Source of the DNA: Candidatus Latescibacterota bacterium | GTDB taxonomy: Bacteria > Latescibacterota > UBA2968 > UBA8231 | Direction of reading: 5' to 3' | NCBI GenBank assembly: GCA_965203175.1 | Contig: OZ241867.1 | Span: 512,001-576,000, forward strand | DNA: 64,000 nt | In this document: piece after piece, positions 17,098 through 58,218 of the stretch | Numbering within the stretch: the stretch's first letter is position 1 | Layout: each line of letters begins with the position of its first letter | Translations under genes and position numbers: made by a program | Notes under the pieces: model-generated | What the model was told of the DNA's origin: nothing | Seen by the model: only the letters and a program-made list of their open reading frames with translations | Databases searched by the model: none

Positions 17098-18318
17098 ATG
17101 CGCGTCAACCGGGATCAATTCTTAGAACAAGGCTACGTAATCCTGCGCCACTGCATCCCACCGGAGATGCTGGATGCGGTGCGTACGGCCTGCGAAAAAA
17201 TGGTCGATCGCCAGCGGGTAATCTGGTCCCGCGAGCGAGCACCCGATGCGCCCGCTGGCGGCGTCTGGGAAACTGCTGCCCAACCTCGGCTGCACCTGCA
17301 AACCATGCAGGACCAAATCGATGCGGAGACCGCCCTGTCGATAGAAATCTGGCTCCACGAAAACTTGCAGGGAGCCAGCAGCGAGTTGCTGGGGTTAAAG
17401 GACGCCGCGGTTACCGAGATGATGATGATGTGCAATCCGGTCCGCGACCACGGCCCGGCCAAGTGGCACCGCGACTTCTATCCGCCTTACTGCGCCCCAC
17501 TCCAAGGCTACGTCGACGACATCCTCGAAAACGGCCCGCGCTATGTGCAGTGGAATATCCCGCTCTACGACGACGACGTGCTGTGGGTCGTGCCCAAAAG
17601 CCACATCCGCCGCAACACCGAGGAGGAAAATCGCCAACTTACCAAAAACAACCGCGTCCCGCTCGCCAGCGGAGTGCAAACTCACCTCAATGCCGGCGAC
17701 GGCGTGGCCTACATCCTGCCGATCCTACACTGGGGCAGCAACTACAGCACCAAGCTGCGCCGCACCATCCACGGCGGCTTTTCCGACTTCACCCACTACC
17801 CGGACCTCAGCTACCTCGAATATCTCTCGCCAGCGGCCCAAACCACCTTCACTCGCTGGGATCAACACAGCCACCAGAAATTGGGCCAAACCGAGGCCGC
17901 GCTCCGTGCAGCCTTGCAAAAGGACGGCGCGGCCTACTGCGCCGCGCTCGACATCCTGCATCCAAGCCGCGGCCCCAAGGGCCAGTTGCAATCGACACTG
18001 TTTTTGAGCAAAGTCGCACGCCGCATCAACCACCTCAAACGCCCCGATTTTGCCGCGCTTCCCGCCCAAGACCAACGCTACGCCACCAGCATGCACCCGA
18101 TGACCTTGCAGTGGGGGCAACGCATCGCCGACCGCTTTTCAGCAGCGGAAGCCGCCGCGCTGTGGGCGCGATTCAAGCCCGTGGACGACGCCCTCCAGGC
18201 CCCGGAGTTGCAATGGGGCCCCGGTTTCCAAGGCGAGGATACCCATTACTACCTCAACGATGTGCCCGCCGACCTCAGCGTCGAACGCTTTATAGCCGAT
18301 TGGGATCAAAAAGCGTAG
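17098..18318 (+). CDS. PhyH family dioxygenase with long C-terminal extension
   Basis: FLEQGYVIL, WHRD, QWNIPLYDD, VPKSH, LHWG. Start at ATG 17098 after GGAG. Confidence 0.8.
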   Translation: MRVNRDQFLEQGYVILRHCIPPEMLDAVRTACEKMVDRQRVIWSRERAPDAPAGGVWETAAQPRLHLQTMQDQIDAETALSIEIWLHENLQGASSELLGLKDAAVTEMMMMCNPVRDHGPAKWHRDFYPPYCAPLQGYVDDILENGPRYVQWNIPLYDDDVLWVVPKSHIRRNTEEENRQLTKNNRVPLASGVQTHLNAGDGVAYILPILHWGSNYSTKLRRTIHGGFSDFTHYPDLSYLEYLSPAAQTTFTRWDQHSHQKLGQTEAALRAALQKDGAAYCAALDILHPSRGPKGQLQSTLFLSKVARRINHLKRPDFAALPAQDQRYATSMHPMTLQWGQRIADRFSAAEAAALWARFKPVDDALQAPELQWGPGFQGEDTHYYLNDVPADLSVERFIADWDQKA

Positions 18319-18944
18319 CTCAGCGCCACGCTGGGCGTACCCGTCCGCGCTGCCGCTTGCAGTTTGAGCCGCTTGCCGTACTTATACCGCACCCGATCGC
18401 GTTTGGTCTCAATTACTTGGATGCCGTGCAAGAAGTCGTATATCATACTGCCGGCGATGGTAATCACTCCCAACGCAACCAGCGGTACGCCTATCCCGCG
18501 ATCGCGATGGAACTCCTGCAGGCGGTACTTGGGCGTCTCGCCTTCTAGCGAAACGGGAATCTTCTCATAGCGGCGCTCGTTGTCTTTCCCGGCGTTGAGC
18601 ACCAAGACGTCAAAATCCGTATCTGGGAAATCGCCCTCGTTCTCCCCAAGCGCCGCCCCAGCGACAATCGCGGCGACACCCGCAAGACTCGTGGCCAAAA
18701 GCCACTTCCCGGTCGTAGGTTCCCCGGCGTAAAAGTGCATCATACCCGGCACCGGAATCGCGCTCCGCATCAATCCGGTGGAGATGCGGCGGTTCATGTC
18801 CTGGTACTCTTCATAGGTCATGTCCTGCGGTATGGGCATTAGCGGTGCCTCGTTCAGCACATCGCCTGTTCCCTGCGCTACAGCCAACGACGGCACGACG
18901 AGTGCCAGCACAAGCGTCACTATCCCTAGCGCGTATTTTCTCAT
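18306..18944 (-). CDS. Exported/membrane hypothetical protein (DUF5683/P13-like)
   Basis: Signal peptide (AVA-Q), PGMMHFYAGE motif, two hydrophobic segments, C-terminal Phe. GGAGG RBS. Confidence 0.6.
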   Translation of the reverse strand: MRKYALGIVTLVLALVVPSLAVAQGTGDVLNEAPLMPIPQDMTYEEYQDMNRRISTGLMRSAIPVPGMMHFYAGEPTTGKWLLATSLAGVAAIVAGAALGENEGDFPDTDFDVLVLNAGKDNERRYEKIPVSLEGETPKYRLQEFHRDRGIGVPLVALGVITIAGSMIYDFLHGIQVIETKRDRVRYKYGKRLKLQAAARTGTPSVALSYAF

Positions 18945-18962: not shown

Positions 18963-18986
18963 AGTAGTGATCGAAGTAGTGATCGA
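18963..18986. repeat. Tandem 12-bp repeat AGTAGTGATCGA x2
   Basis: Read directly from the sequence. Confidence 0.9.
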
Positions 18987-19047: not shown

Positions 19048-21348
19048 ATTGCTATCTCAGAAAGTCGAAGAAGCGGCGAGACGGTTTAATCGACCGGTCG
19101 AGGAATTTTTCAAGCTCGTCGCGTTTCATGGCGACCTGGTCGTTCACGCTCGCAGTGTCGTCCAGTATCCAGTCGGGTATGTCATTTTTGACCTGACTCG
19201 ACGCCATGGGTTGCACTCCAACAATTACCAAATCTCCCGAGATAGTCCAGCTTCCTGTGGGCGGTCGGCGGTCCTTGGTGTATTTGTCGCGATGAAGGAG
19301 GTTTTTCAATACCAAACGGGGTCGTTCAAATGCGCGACTCTGGTATTCGTCCAGAGTCATAATTTTACACCAGTTGGGCAGTTTTGAACCCGGCGGCAAA
19401 TTTTCCTCAAAGAGGTGGCACAACACCGATGAGGAAAGCCTGAGAATGTCCATATCTTGGTATTCTGCATCGGCGGTGGAGTTCATCTCGTGCAAAACCT
19501 GGTTCAGATATTCCCGGTAGAGAGCCGTAGTCAACTTTTCACTGATACCCGAAACCGATCTTTGAAGATTGCGGCGAGTTGGAGTGTCGTCGCCGGGCAG
19601 CGATGTTCGGGTGTAAATCATCAGACATCGCTTTATAATCTCAGGCGGGAAGTTGCGGGCCTCTGCATTCATAGACAGCGCGAAGCATGGATACTCAGGA
19701 TACTGTATCGTTTCGTCCTTGATGATTTCCGGTGCATGACGGCTGAAGCGATCTCGGGTCACGTCGTCGAACACAACGGGGAACCGCTTGTATGATTCCT
19801 GCAAACCGCGCAGATTGCTGCGCGTGAAGTACCGCGTCTCGACTATCCGGGGATAGGAGAACATGGACCTCATCAGCGTTTCGATCAGGATGCTCTTGCC
19901 GCAGTTGCTCTGACCGTATAGCACAGCGAACATGGGCTGGTCGAAGCTAAAGTTTCCCTTTCGGAGAGCGTTATTCCTTAGATCGCACATTAGCGGCGAA
20001 AAGTAAAACCAGCACATGAACGTGTAGTAATCCCGCTGCAACCTAGGAACGTCTCCTGCAAATCCGTTTTCGTAGTTTCCAAAGAACTCCAGCCATGCCG
20101 TTACATCACTTCGCACCTCGGCAGGGTCAGCCTCTAGGCTCAGTTCGTTACCCGAAAGGATGAACCTTTTTCCATCGTAAGACAGAAACGTCCTAGGGCC
20201 ATCATCTTCCTGCCTCGATGTCACTATTCGGGTCATCTGCTTGACGATTCTCGAATCGAATCGGATGTGACCTTTGCCGTTGGGACGAATATCCGCTAGG
20301 GCCTGTCGGCGGATCGGTGTAATGCGTTCTACCTGCGACAGAACCTTCGAAATGCTGTACTCGGCTTCGGCCTCCTGTTCAGGTGGAACGTATATCGTCA
20401 TTCCGCTTGGGCTAGAATCGGCTTCTTTCAGTACCGGAGTCTCTTGGATCGGCATTAGCTCTGCCGAGACGGGGTTCTCTCTGAGGGGCACTCGGTTAGC
20501 GGCAATGGCACGTACAGCTTCGTATTGGTTGGAATAGTGCGTCCAAGCCACATCGTCGTTGTCGAAGGCGATCAGGGTCTCGGCTTGTCTGCCAGAAAAC
20601 GCGGTCTCGGACAGATTAGCCGATCCGACGATGACACGCCTGAATCCCTCTCTTTCTAGCAGATAGATTTTAGCGTGGGCGATGGCGTCCTTCACTACGA
20701 AGAAACGCGCTGTTCCTTTGGCGGCACGATCGTAGATGATTCTCCGGCGCTCGTCAGATAACTCTGCGATCCCAACAAAACCTTTGTTCAGCTTTTCGTT
20801 CACGACGGTCTGGAACGCCAAGAGATTCGCGGCGTCCCGTGTCAATATCCCATTGTGTCCAAAGACGCACTCGAAATCATCGTAATCGAAGTCCCTTAGT
20901 AGCCCTAAGATCATCGGAATGCTTGGGGTGTACGTGAGTGTACGCATGGACGAAAAGCCGCCGAAGAGGTCCATATCAAAACGCTCGACTCTTTCGGCAC
21001 GTGCATAAACGACTTCCAGCCCATTGCTTTGCGTACGAGAGTCAGGATCATCAAAGGCAAAATTAGGTTGTAGCGTCATCAGCAATGTTCCTCGCGATTA
21101 AATTTTTACGCAGATTGAGAAGCTGAATCCCTTGGCATTGGATCCGGCGTTATTCGGAAAATCCGCTGGCGTTATACTTACCTTAATAACATAACTCTTA
21201 AGAATGCCAAAAGTGGCACCGCCATATTCACCGTCACGCCGAAAGGACCGTCACTCCATGATCTGGCCACTTAGGTCGTCCATTCAGCCATCGGTTGTGA
21301 CTTATAACACCTGAACGCGGCAATGGTGTCACCGCTATTGCTATCTCA
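19048..21348. repeat. 12-bp direct repeat ATTGCTATCTCA (19048-19059 and 21337-21348) bracketing the PLD-ATPase gene
   Basis: Exact match read from the sequence. Its significance is uncertain. Confidence 0.6.
19052..21085 (-). CDS. PLD-like (HKD, NgoFVII/BfiI-type) nuclease fused to a P-loop AAA+/SF3-like ATPase
   Basis: AHAKIYLL...VIVGSANLS...QAE, Walker A GQSNCGKS, Walker B VVFDD, sensor-like LSMN, IIKRC. Lower GC than the flanks. Confidence 0.75.
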   Translation of the reverse strand: MLMTLQPNFAFDDPDSRTQSNGLEVVYARAERVERFDMDLFGGFSSMRTLTYTPSIPMILGLLRDFDYDDFECVFGHNGILTRDAANLLAFQTVVNEKLNKGFVGIAELSDERRRIIYDRAAKGTARFFVVKDAIAHAKIYLLEREGFRRVIVGSANLSETAFSGRQAETLIAFDNDDVAWTHYSNQYEAVRAIAANRVPLRENPVSAELMPIQETPVLKEADSSPSGMTIYVPPEQEAEAEYSISKVLSQVERITPIRRQALADIRPNGKGHIRFDSRIVKQMTRIVTSRQEDDGPRTFLSYDGKRFILSGNELSLEADPAEVRSDVTAWLEFFGNYENGFAGDVPRLQRDYYTFMCWFYFSPLMCDLRNNALRKGNFSFDQPMFAVLYGQSNCGKSILIETLMRSMFSYPRIVETRYFTRSNLRGLQESYKRFPVVFDDVTRDRFSRHAPEIIKDETIQYPEYPCFALSMNAEARNFPPEIIKRCLMIYTRTSLPGDDTPTRRNLQRSVSGISEKLTTALYREYLNQVLHEMNSTADAEYQDMDILRLSSSVLCHLFEENLPPGSKLPNWCKIMTLDEYQSRAFERPRLVLKNLLHRDKYTKDRRPPTGSWTISGDLVIVGVQPMASSQVKNDIPDWILDDTASVNDQVAMKRDELEKFLDRSIKPSRRFFDFLR

Positions 21349-21619
21349 ATCAACTCTACGAACTCGATCTATTGCGGTATCACTATCGGCGGGCTCACTA
21401 TGAGCCGTCCCACTCCTTGCCCTAGGACCGGGAGCAGCCTACTTTCCTTGGGTATCCGGCCAGACTCCTCCGCTGCGAAGCCGAGCGGGAATTGAACTTT
21501 TTGACGTGGTCGGTCCAATATTTCTCTGTTGGGACCGACCCCGTTCCACTGCAAATCCGTCAAATCTTCCCATGCAGGGTGCGTGGCCGCAACGCCCATC
21601 TTTCACGCGGAGAAATCTC

Positions 21620-22315
21620 ATGAAGATAGCACGTCTGCTAGGGGTAGGTTGTACCTCGCTCGTCCTGCTCGCCTGCAACGGCCAAGAAGTCAAGACCGAC
21701 ACCCCAGCCAAAGTGGAGACCGAAGAAGAAAAGGTCCTCTACGCCTTGGGCCTAGTCATAGCACAAAACACCATGGAACCGTTCAAGGGGCAATTCAGCG
21801 ACGCGGAAATAGCGGTGGTCCTTAAGGGTTTTGCCGATGCCCTCAAAGGTGGCGAGCCCATCGTCCCCCTAGAGGAATTCGGCCCCAAGATCAACCCCAT
21901 GTTGCAGGAGCGCTTGCAAAGAGTTCAGGCCCAAGCCGAGGCAGAGGGCAAGGCCTTCATGGAAAAGGCCGCCCAAGAAGAAGGCGCCGTGCAGACAGCT
22001 TCCGGCCTCATCTTCAAAGAGTTGAGGGCCGGCACCGGGGTCTCGCCCAAAGCCACTGACCGGGTCAAAGTGCACTACCACGGCTCGCTGATTGACGGCA
22101 CTGTCTTCGACAGTTCGGTGGAGCGCGGCGAGCCTGTCACCTTCGCCCTCGATCAGGTAGTCAAAGGCTGGACTGAGGGACTGCAAATGATGAAAGTGGG
22201 CGGCAAGGCCAAGCTGACCATCTCGCCCGAATTGGCCTACGGCCCGGGGGGCCGCGCAGGGATTCCGCCCAACGCCACCCTGATTTTTGAAGTCGAACTA
22301 CTAGGCATTGAGTGA
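21620..22315 (+). CDS. FKBP-type peptidyl-prolyl isomerase (FkpA/Mip-like lipoprotein)
   Basis: Lipobox LLAC, YALG N-domain, VKVHYHGSLIDGTVFDSS, GWTEGLQMM, IPPNATLIFEVELL. Confidence 0.93.
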   Translation: MKIARLLGVGCTSLVLLACNGQEVKTDTPAKVETEEEKVLYALGLVIAQNTMEPFKGQFSDAEIAVVLKGFADALKGGEPIVPLEEFGPKINPMLQERLQRVQAQAEAEGKAFMEKAAQEEGAVQTASGLIFKELRAGTGVSPKATDRVKVHYHGSLIDGTVFDSSVERGEPVTFALDQVVKGWTEGLQMMKVGGKAKLTISPELAYGPGGRAGIPPNATLIFEVELLGIE

Positions 22316-28215: not shown

Positions 28216-29375
28216 GGCGTTGTTGCATGAATCATATCTGGGGCATCATTGTCGAATGTTGTTTTTTGTTCAGTTGATTTTTTCTACTCGATACGACTGG
28301 GGTTTGCCCACATGGATCATTCGATTGAGGAGGGCACAGCCGAGGCGACTTTCGACCTGTTGGTTGATCCAGCTACGCGCCTTCAGCTTGTCGCCGATGA
28401 GGTGCTTATAGCGATAGATTTGCGTTTCGGCCAACGAGCGTCGATGATAGCCACTGGCCTGTTTCCACTCCTTGCGTCCCTTTCGTCGTATGGCCCGCAG
28501 GATTTCATCGCGCGCCAACGGGGGGACCTTACAATTACCATGCTGATGGATTGTAGCGTCTTTGCGCAGTGCGATGATCGGCCGAATCGAGGGATCACTC
28601 CGCGTGGCCAAGGCGTCGAACACCTTCTGTTTGTCATAGGCCCCATCGCCGCCTACCGCCTCCACCGCCTCGTCGACTTGGGTCAACAGAGGGGCCACCT
28701 GCGAGGCATCATCGATCCGATGGGACGTCAACGTCTGCGCGACCACCTCGCCGGTGGCCTCGTTGACCCCCACATGCAGTTTGCGCCACGTGCGCCGTTT
28801 GGTCCAGCCGTGTTGACGGACTTTCCTCTCGCCCTCGCCATAGACTTTCAAACCCGTCGAATCCACTACCAAGTGCATCGGGCTAGCCGGGCTATCGGGC
28901 TGCTTTTTCGGCAACTCCACCGCCAAGGCCCCTTGGCGACGCGACAAGGTCGAGTAGTCCGGCACGGCCAAGGCCAACCCCATCAAGTCCAACAGCGATT
29001 GGATAAACCCCTGCGTCTGGCGCAACGGCAACCCAAGCAACACCCGCATCGTCAACATCCATTCAATCGCTGGATCCGAATAGACAAACTGAGCACCCCG
29101 TTGCGATGGCCCCTGAGCATACCATTGCTTCCACAGACCATCGTCCAGCCACACCGTCAGGCTACCACGAGCCACCAACGCCCGATTATACGACGACCAA
29201 TTCTTAACCCGATACACCGGTTGCGACTTGACCGAGGGCGAACTGCCAGATACTTTGCTCATCACAGGCTCTTTGGGAAGAAAGGAACGTGTTTCTTGCT
29301 GGAAACCACGAACCAATCTAACCGAAGAGCCTGACTCATTTCAAGACCCGAACACAGCTTTCATGCAACAACGCC
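28216..29375 (-). mobile_element. IS5-family (IS903 group) insertion sequence, 1160 bp
   Basis: 16-bp perfect terminal IRs GGCGTTGTTGCATGAA (28216-28231) and TTCATGCAACAACGCC (29360-29375). No target duplication. Confidence 0.92.
28270..29262 (-). CDS. IS903-group DDE transposase
   Basis: NWSSYNRALVARGSLTVW, VPDYSTLSRR, VDSTGLKVYGEG, WRKLH, DGAYD, YHRRSLAET. Confidence 0.93.
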   Translation of the reverse strand: MSKVSGSSPSVKSQPVYRVKNWSSYNRALVARGSLTVWLDDGLWKQWYAQGPSQRGAQFVYSDPAIEWMLTMRVLLGLPLRQTQGFIQSLLDLMGLALAVPDYSTLSRRQGALAVELPKKQPDSPASPMHLVVDSTGLKVYGEGERKVRQHGWTKRRTWRKLHVGVNEATGEVVAQTLTSHRIDDASQVAPLLTQVDEAVEAVGGDGAYDKQKVFDALATRSDPSIRPIIALRKDATIHQHGNCKVPPLARDEILRAIRRKGRKEWKQASGYHRRSLAETQIYRYKHLIGDKLKARSWINQQVESRLGCALLNRMIHVGKPQSYRVEKIN

Positions 29376-29823
29376 GTTTGCAACTATAATCATTCAATGT
29401 ATCAATATTAGCAATAACTGGGCCAGTTTCGCTCTCTACAAGGACAGTTGCGTTGCGCTTCACAGCGTCTCTGCTGAGTACTTGGGTTGATCTGACGGCC
29501 GTTTCGTGCAGGAAGGGCAAGTGGCGCTTGATCTTTGCGGGTGTGAGAGGAAGGGATAGTGGCGAGATTTCGACTTCGTGCCGAGCCTGAATGGGGTGAA
29601 GCGAAAACTCGACGTTGTGCAATATTTCGGGATTGGCGAACTCAGGCACTGAGCGCTCAATGACTACATGGTCACGGAGATTCCAAGTGTGAAGAGTATA
29701 AAACGTAATGATCTCGACGAGCGTTCCCAAAGCACGGCCTGCGGCTTTCTTTTTGTCCTTGGCGTACTCAAAGACCGTGTCCGCCAGAGTTTTTTGAAGT
29801 GCATCGACTGACTCAAAAGCCAA
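29376..29823 (-). pseudogene. 5' fragment of an unknown, restriction-endonuclease-like gene truncated by IS
   Basis: TTG start after AGGAG. The ORF runs into the IS end. Lower GC. GRALGTLVE helix motif recalls PD-(D/E)xK enzymes. Confidence 0.5.
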
Positions 29824-56283: not shown

Positions 56284-56329
56284 CAGACATATTGACACTA
56301 TTTACAATTAAGTGGAGGCAATATGTCTG
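56284..56329. promoter_or_regulatory. 11-bp inverted repeat CAGACATATTG/CAATATGTCTG, probable AbiEi operator
   Basis: Perfect IR spanning the RBS and start codon of abiEi. Confidence 0.65.
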
Positions 56330-56928
56330 GAGCAAAGAAAGAGCGTCCTGAAGAAATATTCCGCAGGTACGGCGGCCAACTCCGAATGAGCGAGGCCATC
56401 GCGCACGGGATCACACGCTACATGCTGTATGCGCTCAAGGACAGGGGCGTCATCGAGCCGGTCAGCAGAGGCATCTACCGACTGCAGGAACTACCTCCAC
56501 TCGACAACCCTGATCTGGTCACGGTAAGCCTTCGCTTTCCCAATGCCGTCGTTTGTCTCACCTCCGCGCTAGCCTACCATGGTATCACGACCCAAATTCC
56601 CCATGAGGTTTCCGTGGCTGTGCCAAGAGATTCGCGGGTGCCGTCCCTCGACTATCCCCCCATACGGGTCCACAGATTCTCGCAGGAAGCGTACAAACCC
56701 GGAATCGAAACACATCTGCTTGATGGCGTACCCGTCAAAATCTACAGCCGCGAGAAAACCCTAGCCGACTGCTTCAAATTTCGCAACAAGATTGGCATGG
56801 ATGTGGTGCTGGAAGCCGTGAAGCTCCACAAGACGCGAAACGGGTTCAACCTCGGCAAACTGCTCAAATACGCCAGAATCTGTCGAGTGGAAAAGGTGAT
56901 GCAGCCCTACTTGGAGGCACTGGTATGA
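56323..56928 (+). CDS. abiEi: Type IV TA antitoxin AbiEi
   Basis: wHTH with SRGIYRL, CLTSALAYHGITTQIP, EKTLADCFKFRNKIG. Confidence 0.9.
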   Translation: MSGAKKERPEEIFRRYGGQLRMSEAIAHGITRYMLYALKDRGVIEPVSRGIYRLQELPPLDNPDLVTVSLRFPNAVVCLTSALAYHGITTQIPHEVSVAVPRDSRVPSLDYPPIRVHRFSQEAYKPGIETHLLDGVPVKIYSREKTLADCFKFRNKIGMDVVLEAVKLHKTRNGFNLGKLLKYARICRVEKVMQPYLEALV

Positions 56929-57827
56929 CGGCTCCCCGCAATGCGTCCGCGTCCGTCCGGCAACGCCTCCTCAATCGGTCCAGAAGTGAAAGACGGCCAT
57001 TCAACGAACTGCTTCAATACTTCGCTATGGAGCGATTCCTCTACCGGCTATCCCAATCCGCTCATGCCCAGCGATTTGTGCTCAAGGGTGCGTTGATGCT
57101 GAGGGTTTGGGACTCACCGGAATTCCGTCCGACCATGGACATCGACCTACTTGGCAGGACTCGTAACGCGGAAGCCGACATCGTCTCTCAGATGCGGGAC
57201 ATCCTGATGGTCAATGTGGAAACGGACGGACTTGCGTTCGACCTAGATTCTATCCAGACTGAGCGGATCACCGAAGGTGCGTATTATGACGGGATCAGGA
57301 TTCGTTTCTTGGGCGCATTGGGATCCGCGAGAATTCATATGCAGATCGACATTGGCTTCGGCGACATCGTGTATCCCGAGCCGAAAGAGTCGGATTTTCC
57401 GACCATACTGGACTTCCCAGCACCGCGATTGCTCTGCTACAGTCGTGAGAGCTCCATCTCGGAGAAGTTTGAAGCCATGGTCAAGCTGGGTATGCTGAAC
57501 AGCCGGATGAAGGATTTCTACGACATCTGGTTGCTATCCCGGCTGTTCGACTTTGAGGGCCCAAAGCTGACCCAAGCCATTCAGCGGACCTTTGAGCAGC
57601 GTGGCACGGCGCTGCCCTCAGAAATCGAGATGTTCACTCAGCCTTTCATCGATGTCAAGCAGACCCAGTGGGCGGCATTCCACAATAGGCTTCAGCAGGG
57701 TCACGTGCCCGCCTCGTTCGGAGAAATCACAGCTTCGGTGAGCAGATTCCTGTGGCCCGTTGTCGCAGCTCTTTCTTCTGGAAAGTCCAGTCCGACAGAC
57801 TGGATCGCACCCGGGCCATGGACCTGA
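56925..57827 (+). CDS. abiEii: Type IV TA toxin AbiEii/AbiGii nucleotidyltransferase
   Basis: ERFLYRL, LKGA, RPTMDID, EKFEAM, NSRMKDFYD. ATGA overlap. Confidence 0.92.
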   Translation: MTAPRNASASVRQRLLNRSRSERRPFNELLQYFAMERFLYRLSQSAHAQRFVLKGALMLRVWDSPEFRPTMDIDLLGRTRNAEADIVSQMRDILMVNVETDGLAFDLDSIQTERITEGAYYDGIRIRFLGALGSARIHMQIDIGFGDIVYPEPKESDFPTILDFPAPRLLCYSRESSISEKFEAMVKLGMLNSRMKDFYDIWLLSRLFDFEGPKLTQAIQRTFEQRGTALPSEIEMFTQPFIDVKQTQWAAFHNRLQQGHVPASFGEITASVSRFLWPVVAALSSGKSSPTDWIAPGPWT

Positions 57828-57891: not shown

Positions 57892-58218
57892 TTATGCCCA
57901 CAACAAGCGCCGCTGTAGTAATGTCTGCATACCCCTCCGCCCATCGGCGATCAAGAGCACATAGACGTTATTTTTCATCGCCCGATAGATGATGTGGTAG
58001 GGCCTGGAGAAAATCTCCCGGTATTCCCGAATCCCTATGTCCAGCAGTTCCGCCGGGTAGTTCCCGCGCTCGGGATACTCGGAGAGGCTGCTGAAAGCCT
58101 TCTCAATCTGCTCCAGCACATAATCCGCCCGATCCGGTTCATCATGCCGATCGATGTAATCGTATATCTCCTCCAAGTCGCGCGTCGCGTCATCGGTCAA
58201 CTGAACCAAGAAAGCCAT
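57892..58218 (-). CDS. RelE/ParE family toxin
   Basis: ATRDLEEIYDYI, YPERG, YREI...Y.IIY, IADGRR. Confidence 0.9.
   Translation of the reverse strand: MAFLVQLTDDATRDLEEIYDYIDRHDEPDRADYVLEQIEKAFSSLSEYPERGNYPAELLDIGIREYREIFSRPYHIIYRAMKNNVYVLLIADGRRGMQTLLQRRLLWA

Follow-up and report, generated by a model that had tools for sequence, protein, structure and literature searches.

The window analyzed here, a 64,000-nt stretch of contig OZ241867.1 from a Candidatus Latescibacterota genome (assembly GCA_965203175.1, positions 512,001–576,000 of the forward strand), carries on its reverse strand at positions 19052–21085 a gene for a fusion of a single-HKD phospholipase D (PLD) nuclease domain with an AAA+ ATPase. 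As judged by profile comparisons, the encoded protein is a distant full-length homolog, over both the PLD and the ATPase region, of AgaP, the PLD effector of the pAgo-AgaP (APAP) defense system of haloarchaea (PMC11442185). The open reading frame (ORF) is real and intact and comprises 677 codons counted from a TTG. An alternative start, the ATG at 21079, gives a protein of 675 aa; because GAGGA lies 9 nt 5' of this ATG (21089–21093, a likely ribosome-binding site) and the homologs P0002–P0005 (88–95% identical) are all 675 aa, the ATG is the likelier start. The GC content of the gene is 0.519 compared with 0.599 for the window, and its GC at third codon positions is 0.61 compared with 0.68–0.82 in 18 of the 21 other ORFs called in the surrounding 22 kb; among related loci with enough flanking sequence, 58 of 76 likewise have a gene lower in GC than its flanks. 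The dN/dS ratios of all ten pairs formed by five close copies lie between 0.05 and 0.17, demonstrating that the gene is under purifying selection. Its closest relatives (94% and 89% identity) are encoded in Candidatus Latescibacterota genomes, and a search with this protein as the single query returned 796 clusters (at 50% identity) with an e value of 0.001 or less.

The original prediction, made from the sequence alone, had described a 677-aa gene of lower GC content encoding HxK, GSxN, E, Walker A, Walker B, LSMN, and IIKRC motifs in a single-HKD PLD–AAA+ fusion. All of these motifs are present and conserved, and Pfam and fold comparisons, the latter performed on an AlphaFold model (mean predicted local distance difference test score [pLDDT] of 88.6) with Foldseek and VIA Z scores, bear out both domains. 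In order, the protein consists of a PLD domain, a linker, an AAA+ module, a small C-terminal domain, and a basic amphipathic tail. The PLD domain (residues ~35–200; 20486–20983) matches the Pfam model PF09565 at 27.0 bits (cut-off 23.8), and in the model its fold is closest to Nuc (1bys, Z 12.3, root-mean-square deviation [rmsd] 3.0 over 132 residues), followed by NucT (Z 12.1), NgoAVII R (Z 11.4), and BfiI (Z 9.2), with Zucchini and FAM83 domains nearly tied (Z 11.1–12.3). H137-x-K139 (20669–20677) and G154-S155-A-N157 (20615–20626) form the two halves of the PLD active-site motif. The linker or helical region (residues ~200–296; 20198–20485) is poorly conserved (0.23–0.29 per 25-residue block), and model confidence dips at residues 238–245 and 292–296.

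For the AAA+ module (residues ~297–592; 19310–20197) the best Foldseek matches are Cch of SCCmec (5dgk, e value 1.7e-6) and Rep of SaPIBov1 (8tch, e value 2e-5), both with a VIA Z of 13.0 (rmsd 4.6 over 252 and 7.0 over 296 residues, respectively); MCM (Z 9.8), the SaPI5 primase-helicase (Z 9.4), and BrxL (Z 8.4) score lower, and superfamily 3 (SF3)/D5 helicases follow Cch and Rep. A Pfam scan of the protein gave a PF00910 match with an e value of 0.002, under the cut-off of that model. Walker A spans G391–S398 (G391, G396, K397, and S398; 19892–19915), Walker B is D440-D441 (19763–19768), and N473 and R486 (19628–19669) are, by the usual AAA+ motif order, presumably sensor-1 and the arginine finger. 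The motif order and all fold matches of the ATPase region are those of AAA+ proteins and not of superfamily 2 (SF2). The AAA+ assignment of the original prediction stands on fold and motifs, whereas the likeness to the Cch and SaPI Rep motors and the conserved basic-aromatic tail are additions to it. A small alpha/beta domain (residues ~575–665; 19091–19363; pLDDT 86.6 in a separate model) follows the motor. When the last 110 residues were modeled alone, matches were weak (Cch, e value 0.068; WhiA, Z 6.0; SaPI Rep, Z 4.4), and with a best Z of 6.0 a firm fold assignment was rejected; a winged-helix-like DNA-binding domain as in Cch and Rep is possible from the model.

Conservation was assessed in 96 aligned homologs with a mean column identity of 22% and in an 85-sequence set that includes archaeal members. 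H137, K139, S155, N157, S159, E169, G391, K397, and R486 are invariant in all 96 homologs, and H137, K139, S155, N157, G391, G396, K397, N473, and R486 are kept in all 85 sequences, whereas D441 is Asp in 83 and Glu in 2 of the 85. Because the catalytic positions are invariant at such a low mean identity, the motifs do not reflect chance. Some members depart from the common architecture: P0133, P0138, and P0145 carry an extra N-terminal segment of ~60–70 residues, one Bacillota cluster in the Atlas has HTH_3 in 89% of its members, and in the 790-aa homolog P0007 the Walker A region occurs twice, which looks like a partial duplication or an assembly artifact. No longer fused forms (1,186–3,385 aa) were found among 6,386 candidates, which is weak evidence for their absence.

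A homolog encoded on a Natrarchaeobaculum plasmid, the gene of which overlaps an Argonaute gene, led us to AgaP. Behind the Argonaute gene on plasmid pNATPE02 of N. pellirubrum (NC_019963.1; L006:5998–8151) the full frame is open and encodes 717 aa, and all nine AgaP residue numbers given in the published study (PMC11442185), as well as D630 of NpAgo, match the plasmid sequence; by this correspondence the ORF is the published NpAgaP. The gene table of pNATPE02 lists agaP only as a C-terminal fragment together with two antisense hypothetical ORFs. A profile built from the 96 family members matched NpAgaP with an e value of 2e-29 at Z = 1e9, and the reverse profile, built from 14 haloarchaeal members, matched the window protein with an e value of 4e-11 at Z = 1e9 over the PLD domain (35–177) and the ATPase (292–473). 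The reverse profile also recovered 89 of the 96 family members with an e value less than 1e-3, while the best of 1,460 neighbor proteins had an e value of 5e5. An hhalign comparison with the Argonaute-linked protein of L005 gave a probability of 99.7 over 576 columns. H137, K139, G154, S155, and N157 align with H105, K107, G157, S158, and N160 of NpAgaP. The homologs that are up to 95% identical to the window protein carry the P-loop NTPase model PF27394 (Aq_aa27) in addition to PF09565 (RE_NgoFVII) and are annotated as "NgoFVII family restriction endonuclease" or "phospholipase D family protein"; the top Atlas clusters score 0.99. Membership of the window protein in PF27394 is assigned via these close homologs. 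The statement in the original prediction that the architecture matches no named system is thus superseded, although no function of PF27394 is described in the literature searched.

AgaP has been studied in haloarchaea. Expressed alone, it is toxic to Haloarcula hispanica through H105, K107, G157, S158, and N160; NpAgaP alone lowers transformation efficiency ~1,000-fold in an HxK-dependent manner, and the authors speculate that it is a non-specific nuclease (PMC11442185). AgaP is tolerated in H. hispanica only together with pAgo, plasmid loss in APAP is driven by AgaP catalysis, again HxK-dependent, and not by Argonaute catalysis, and immunity to the virus HHPV-2 is stronger when AgaP is present, with no abortive infection (PMC11442185). 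This tested relative acts in defense with the same HxK/GSxN center, and our best reading of the window protein is a nuclease with a defense role. We consider it somewhat probable (roughly 55%) that it is an autonomous, methylase-independent DNase directed against invading plasmids and/or phages, that is, an Argonaute-free form of the AgaP family.

The homology also bears on AgaP itself. The Walker A lysine, the sensor Asn, and the arginine finger are kept in all 14 haloarchaeal members, and the position of D441 is Asp or Glu in all 14, revealing that AgaP carries an intact ATPase, with a fold closest to the Cch/SaPI-Rep ring helicases, that is unmentioned in its paper: the terms "ATPase," "NTPase," and "P-loop" have no occurrence in the text and supplement of PMC11442185. 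The "unique split motif" of AgaP, a spacer of ~50 residues, is an insertion present in 6 of the 14 haloarchaeal members. As only three of the eight Argonaute-linked members have the long spacer, the split motif marks one subclade.

To determine how often the family occurs with Argonaute, we used 14 of the 20 haloarchaeal plasmid records listed. An Argonaute gene lies within 4 kb of the AgaP-like gene in eight of them and none lies nearby in six, and none of these six plasmids is among the 44 plasmid records matched by NpAgo (plasmid records, as distinct from chromosomes). Three of the six (L089, L091, and L092) encode proteins that are 81% identical to NpAgaP with intact motifs. On three haloarchaeal plasmids (L087, L089, and L091) the AgaP-like gene is followed by two small genes and a gene for a ThiF-family adenylyltransferase, an arrangement that occurs with or without Argonaute and is followed by a DEAD-box helicase gene in L089 and L091; it is possibly another defense module. 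In the window, tblastn searches with two Argonautes and five methylases (e value of 1e-3 or less) found neither protein, and none of 123 long reading segments screened had methylase motifs. For bacterial relatives, we collected 79 loci from the best 80 of 332 confirmed matches (40–94% identity); the neighborhoods of the branches at 25–45% identity are known from few plasmids only. No Argonaute is among the proteins called within 10 kb in these 79 loci. The AgaP family thus often occurs without Argonaute, an observation that is new.

The original prediction had named consistent linkage to a cognate methyltransferase as the sign of an orphaned restriction-modification subunit. DNA-methylase domains occur within 10 kb in only four of the 79 loci (L012, L014, L020, and L034), 3–8 kb away and never adjacent; L045 has a generic SAM-methyltransferase nearby, and no DNA methylase is among the 150 nearest neighbor families. 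Because linked methylases are lacking, an orphan restriction-modification subunit was rejected. The same data bear on the proposal that the protein is an effector of an unlinked specificity factor, Argonaute or methylase, or that it reads modified bases through its C-terminal domain in the manner of SauUSI. The need for pAgo in H. hispanica and the presence of an Argonaute in H. halobius on a different plasmid from the AgaP-like gene speak for an unlinked factor, and SauUSI, a PLD-ATPase that acts alone on methylated DNA (bioRxiv 10.64898/2026.09.23.753747), provides a precedent for modification dependence. However, no Argonaute was found in the window or the 79 loci (a survey of neighborhoods rather than whole genomes), the few methylases are never adjacent, and the ATPase is AAA+ and not SF2, so we consider both versions quite improbable.

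No partner gene is conserved across the 79 related loci, and none is adjacent in the window, in agreement with the original prediction. Gene calls came from a simple ORF caller that missed the target gene itself in three loci, so small neighbors may be missed. The most frequent neighbor families, among them luciferase-like monooxygenases, transporters, and oxidoreductases, reach at most 19 of the 79 loci. Downstream of the gene 54 different families are represented, so that it sits at many unrelated genomic sites. In a quick tree, which does not address the direction of transfer, Chloroflexota, Latescibacterota, Binatota, and Pseudomonadota are mixed, and the seven Latescibacterota rows force at least three changes. 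On plasmids of acetic acid bacteria, Athalassotoga, and haloarchaea the gene is surrounded by genes for toxin-antitoxin pairs, restriction, helicases, and nucleases, an Arcobacter plasmid copy adjoins parA/parB and replication genes, and some chromosomal copies adjoin Mrr, GmrSD, AbiE, PDC-M23, or PsyrA genes. In a second Latescibacterota/Gemmatimonadota clade (L013–L015, L018, L019, L023, L025, L062, and L067), the gene occupies a variable spot beside an ABC-transporter cluster where toxin-antitoxin-like or GmrSD genes come and go, making this site a small defense hotspot.

Of the 79 copies, 68 are intact. The other 11 have no full-length ORF: two of these lie at the end of a contig or close to it, and an IS1-type gene splits at least one. 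The scatter over unrelated sites and phyla, the broken copies, and the defense-type neighbors of the plasmid copies speak for a defense role. Broken copies of a single gene would also fit an abortive-infection effector, in which the ATPase, on sensing infection through a phage protein or a DNA intermediate, would activate a non-specific DNase against host and phage DNA, as would the HxK-dependent drop in transformation caused by NpAgaP alone. Toxicity in a foreign host is not proof of regulated suicide, however, and AgaP together with its Argonaute gave virus immunity without cell death (PMC11442185), which leaves this explanation unlikely in our view.

The last 12 residues (19055–19090) form a basic-aromatic amphipathic tail with a hydrophobic moment of 0.88 in this protein, a candidate membrane-targeting helix. 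A short C-terminal basic amphipathic helix is the membrane-targeting sequence of MinD-type proteins, which the tail resembles in composition and in hydrophobic-moment tests against controls. Under a rule of net charge +2 or more and at least three F/W/L/I within the last 12 residues, the thresholds of which were set after the tails had been seen and applied to related sequences that are not independent, 75 of the 96 family members have such a tail compared with 52 of 545 neighbor proteins. Among halophiles, the members of which are acidic overall (5–12 net negative charges per 100 residues), 9 of 14 members follow the rule compared with 1 of 50 acidic neighbor proteins. A stricter rule that adds the hydrophobic moment retains 28 of the 96 members, 26 of 68 close copies, and 1 of 14 halophile members, compared with 5 of 545 neighbor proteins and 16 of 1,920 internal windows. 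The protein contains no transmembrane helix (maximum 19-residue hydropathy 0.91), and the tail may bind membrane. Combined with the near-tied Zucchini and FAM83 folds, the conserved tail could point to a PLD domain that acts on a membrane lipid or on RNA, as Zucchini-like proteins would, and is placed on the membrane by the tail. Such a substrate appears very improbable given that the domain is fused to a DNA-helicase-like motor, that its best Pfam match is to PLD domains of restriction enzymes, and that the AgaP active site causes plasmid loss (PMC11442185).

How an autonomous DNase might work is suggested by the domains. Each chain would provide half of a PLD active site, so that cleavage would require two PLD domains to come together, as is described for BfiI and MtsD (bioRxiv 10.64898/2026.09.23.753747). 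The Cch/Rep-like ATPase would assemble into a ring on DNA, at ends, at forks, or where it is single-stranded, with the arginine finger acting in trans, and this assembly would bring the PLD domains together, so that ATP and DNA structure rather than methylation would license cutting. Anchored at the inner membrane by its tail, the complex would be kept apart from the nucleoid and near the entry of foreign DNA. Haloarchaeal Argonautes may in some lineages have recruited this ready-made effector. The dimer, ring, and tail steps are each less certain than the overall reading, the tail step being the least certain. A bolder proposal, which we regard as doubtful, is that the family comprises widespread membrane-tethered ring motor-nucleases derived from mobile-element replication helicases, which destroy entering DNA and tell it from the cell's own by location and DNA structure, needing neither a guide nor methylation. 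If true, APAP would be an Argonaute that captured this machine, and the overlooked ATPase of AgaP would account for the action of APAP on double-stranded plasmids when Argonaute catalysis plays no part.

Several observations weigh against an autonomous defense DNase. The similarity to AgaP is distant (~21% identity to NpAgaP in local BLAST segments), and we found no assay of an Argonaute-free family member in the literature searched. Given the toxicity of AgaP to H. hispanica when expressed alone, and the failure of APAP to confer immunity on Escherichia coli (PMC11442185), autonomous discrimination of self from non-self is uncertain. Rep helicases require channel hairpin residues for DNA unwinding (PMC9371898), but the stretch from Walker B to N473 has only 32–33 residues in 57 of the 85 sequences and the AlphaFold model shows no hairpin strands there; this DNA-gripping hairpin may be absent from the protein, which makes processive translocation doubtful. 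In addition, the position of the gene is kept within lineages (the same downstream family in seven, six, and five loci), and close relatives lie mostly between ordinary metabolic genes. The defense-island enrichment that the original prediction proposed to look for was not seen: in a scan of 447 of 751 neighbor families plus 30 picked proteins, with some repeats, PADLOC models matched 11 of 147 families at 1–3 kb and 16 of 150 at 5–8 kb, counts that include housekeeping look-alikes.

Lack of such enrichment, stable position within lineages, and low dN/dS would suit a protein with no defense function, a domesticated mobile-element helicase-nuclease serving repair, recombination, or the processing of taken-up DNA, and the nearest folds of the motor are indeed replication helicases of mobile elements. 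A recurring 214-aa family (F11), the sequence of which we take to resemble LexA (a reading rather than a scan result), lies two to four genes away in some loci and could be seen in the same light. However, no primase, integrase, or repair partner is conserved in the 79 loci, the spread across phyla is patchy with broken copies, and the sole tested relative acts in defense (PMC11442185). We therefore hold a non-defense role to be rather improbable and retain the Argonaute-free defense DNase as the preferred reading.

The relationship ties a large and poorly annotated family of 796 clusters to one experimentally studied defense protein, and AgaP, described only as a PLD nuclease, can be reread as a protein whose helicase-like ATPase is intact and whose basic tail is conserved. 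The removal of plasmids without Argonaute catalysis, an open question for APAP, becomes directly testable. Soluble salt-adapted AgaP was not obtained by its authors (PMC11442185), and a non-halophilic Argonaute-free protein offers a tractable stand-in. Were it protective alone, it would constitute a single-gene defense system with a PLD plus Cch/Rep-like AAA+ architecture that we have not found described.

The gene lies between a 212-aa ORF with no Pfam match (18306–18944, reverse strand) and a divergent gene for an FKBP peptidyl-prolyl isomerase (21506–22315, forward strand). Its upstream leader (21086–21350, reverse strand) contains blocks that recur 5' of a radical-SAM gene in the relative L054 (L054:2496–2935), where that gene is inserted directly behind the stop codon of the PLD–AAA+ gene. 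A perfect 12-nt direct repeat (19048–19059 and 21337–21348) flanks the gene, the downstream copy spanning the stop codon; 4 of 2,000 shuffles reach such a length. The repeat and the reuse of the leader hint that units of leader plus gene may have been inserted like cassettes in this lineage. Because L054, with 17 nt, is the only one of 67 related loci to have a repeat of 12 nt or more, a flanking repeat was rejected as a family-wide signal of mobility. The gap 3' of the gene contains two head-to-tail copies of a 12-nt unit (18963–18986), not seen in the relative L007. Repeat analysis found no iteron array adjoining the gene, an Rfam scan of the window returned no matches, and scans for promoters and terminators gave results no better than chance. 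Elsewhere in the window, a second low-GC patch encodes an AbiEi/AbiEii type IV toxin-antitoxin pair beside a ParE-family toxin (56323–57827, forward strand; 57892–58218, reverse strand), and an IS5-family transposase gene (28270–29316, reverse strand) lies beside a low-GC 160-aa ORF of no clear family (29341–29823).

Finally, we compared the protein with named systems. PADLOC DB 2.0.0 (2023) gave no full-length match (ZacB, e value 7e-6 over residues 137–176; mad8, e value 0.05), NCBIfam has no full-length family for it, and neither the protein nor its profile had a significant sequence match in the PDB. The GenBank phage collection had no match to this protein or to the distant member P0180, and E. 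coli genomes had none in a DNA-level comparison, which is a weak test. In the main texts of the openly searchable literature we found no prior description of the form without Argonaute, of the ATPase, or of the tail, the AgaP paper being the sole relevant one; the main texts of defense-discovery preprints had no relevant PLD passage, although supplements could list the family. Earlier surveys include PLD neighbors of Argonautes only as predicted nucleases (PMC6299218; PMC5995195). One further paper (PMC11162769) reportedly applies a name similar to AgaP to a protein described in its title as an RNase.

Enzymes of the BfiI/NgoAVII/NgoFVII type have a B3-like DNA-recognition domain; the fold matches of the C-terminal domain of the window protein were weak. 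These enzymes share with the window protein the single-HKD PLD fold and PF09565, but the window protein has neither a cognate methylase nor an SF2 helicase partner and ends in an AAA+ motor. Effectors of the DISARM type combine PLD with an SF2 motor, fused or as a conserved partner, neither of which is found here. SauUSI and MtsD of MANTIS follow a common logic of ATP-driven PLD nucleases (the PLD fold also matches 7clg), whereas their motors are SF2 helicase-like and the window gene has no MtsA–C operon (bioRxiv 10.64898/2026.09.23.753747); MANTIS/Gao_RL was rejected on its different architecture. BrxL (Atlas 0.84) was set aside as a look-alike because it scores below Cch/Rep and MCM and the window protein has no Lon domain, and the gene is not classed with BREX. 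With the self-loading ring helicases Cch and SaPI Rep the protein shares the AAA+ fold of residues 297–592, including Walker A, Walker B, sensor, and arginine finger, but it is only 11–12% identical to them, is fused to a nuclease, appears to have a shortened hairpin region, and has neither the conserved primase or integrase neighbors nor the adjoining origin iterons of a replication module. SNIPE, a single-gene GIY-YIG nuclease that tells self from non-self by membrane location (PMC13190303), a spatial logic that has been reviewed (PMC12904381), is a functional analog for which we claim no homology: it has a transmembrane anchor and no ATPase, and the window protein the reverse. The closest comparison is with APAP, in which a long-A Argonaute gene shares the operon. 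The window protein and AgaP have in common the HxK(x4)E plus GSxN center, Walker A and B, the sensor Asn, the arginine finger, and the basic tail; they differ in the bacterial host, in the spacing from HxK to GSxN (14 residues compared with 49 in NpAgaP), in E169, which is Asn in all 14 haloarchaeal members, and in the absence of a nearby Argonaute. Given this absence, we assign the window protein to the AgaP/Aq_aa27 (PF27394) family but not to the APAP systems.

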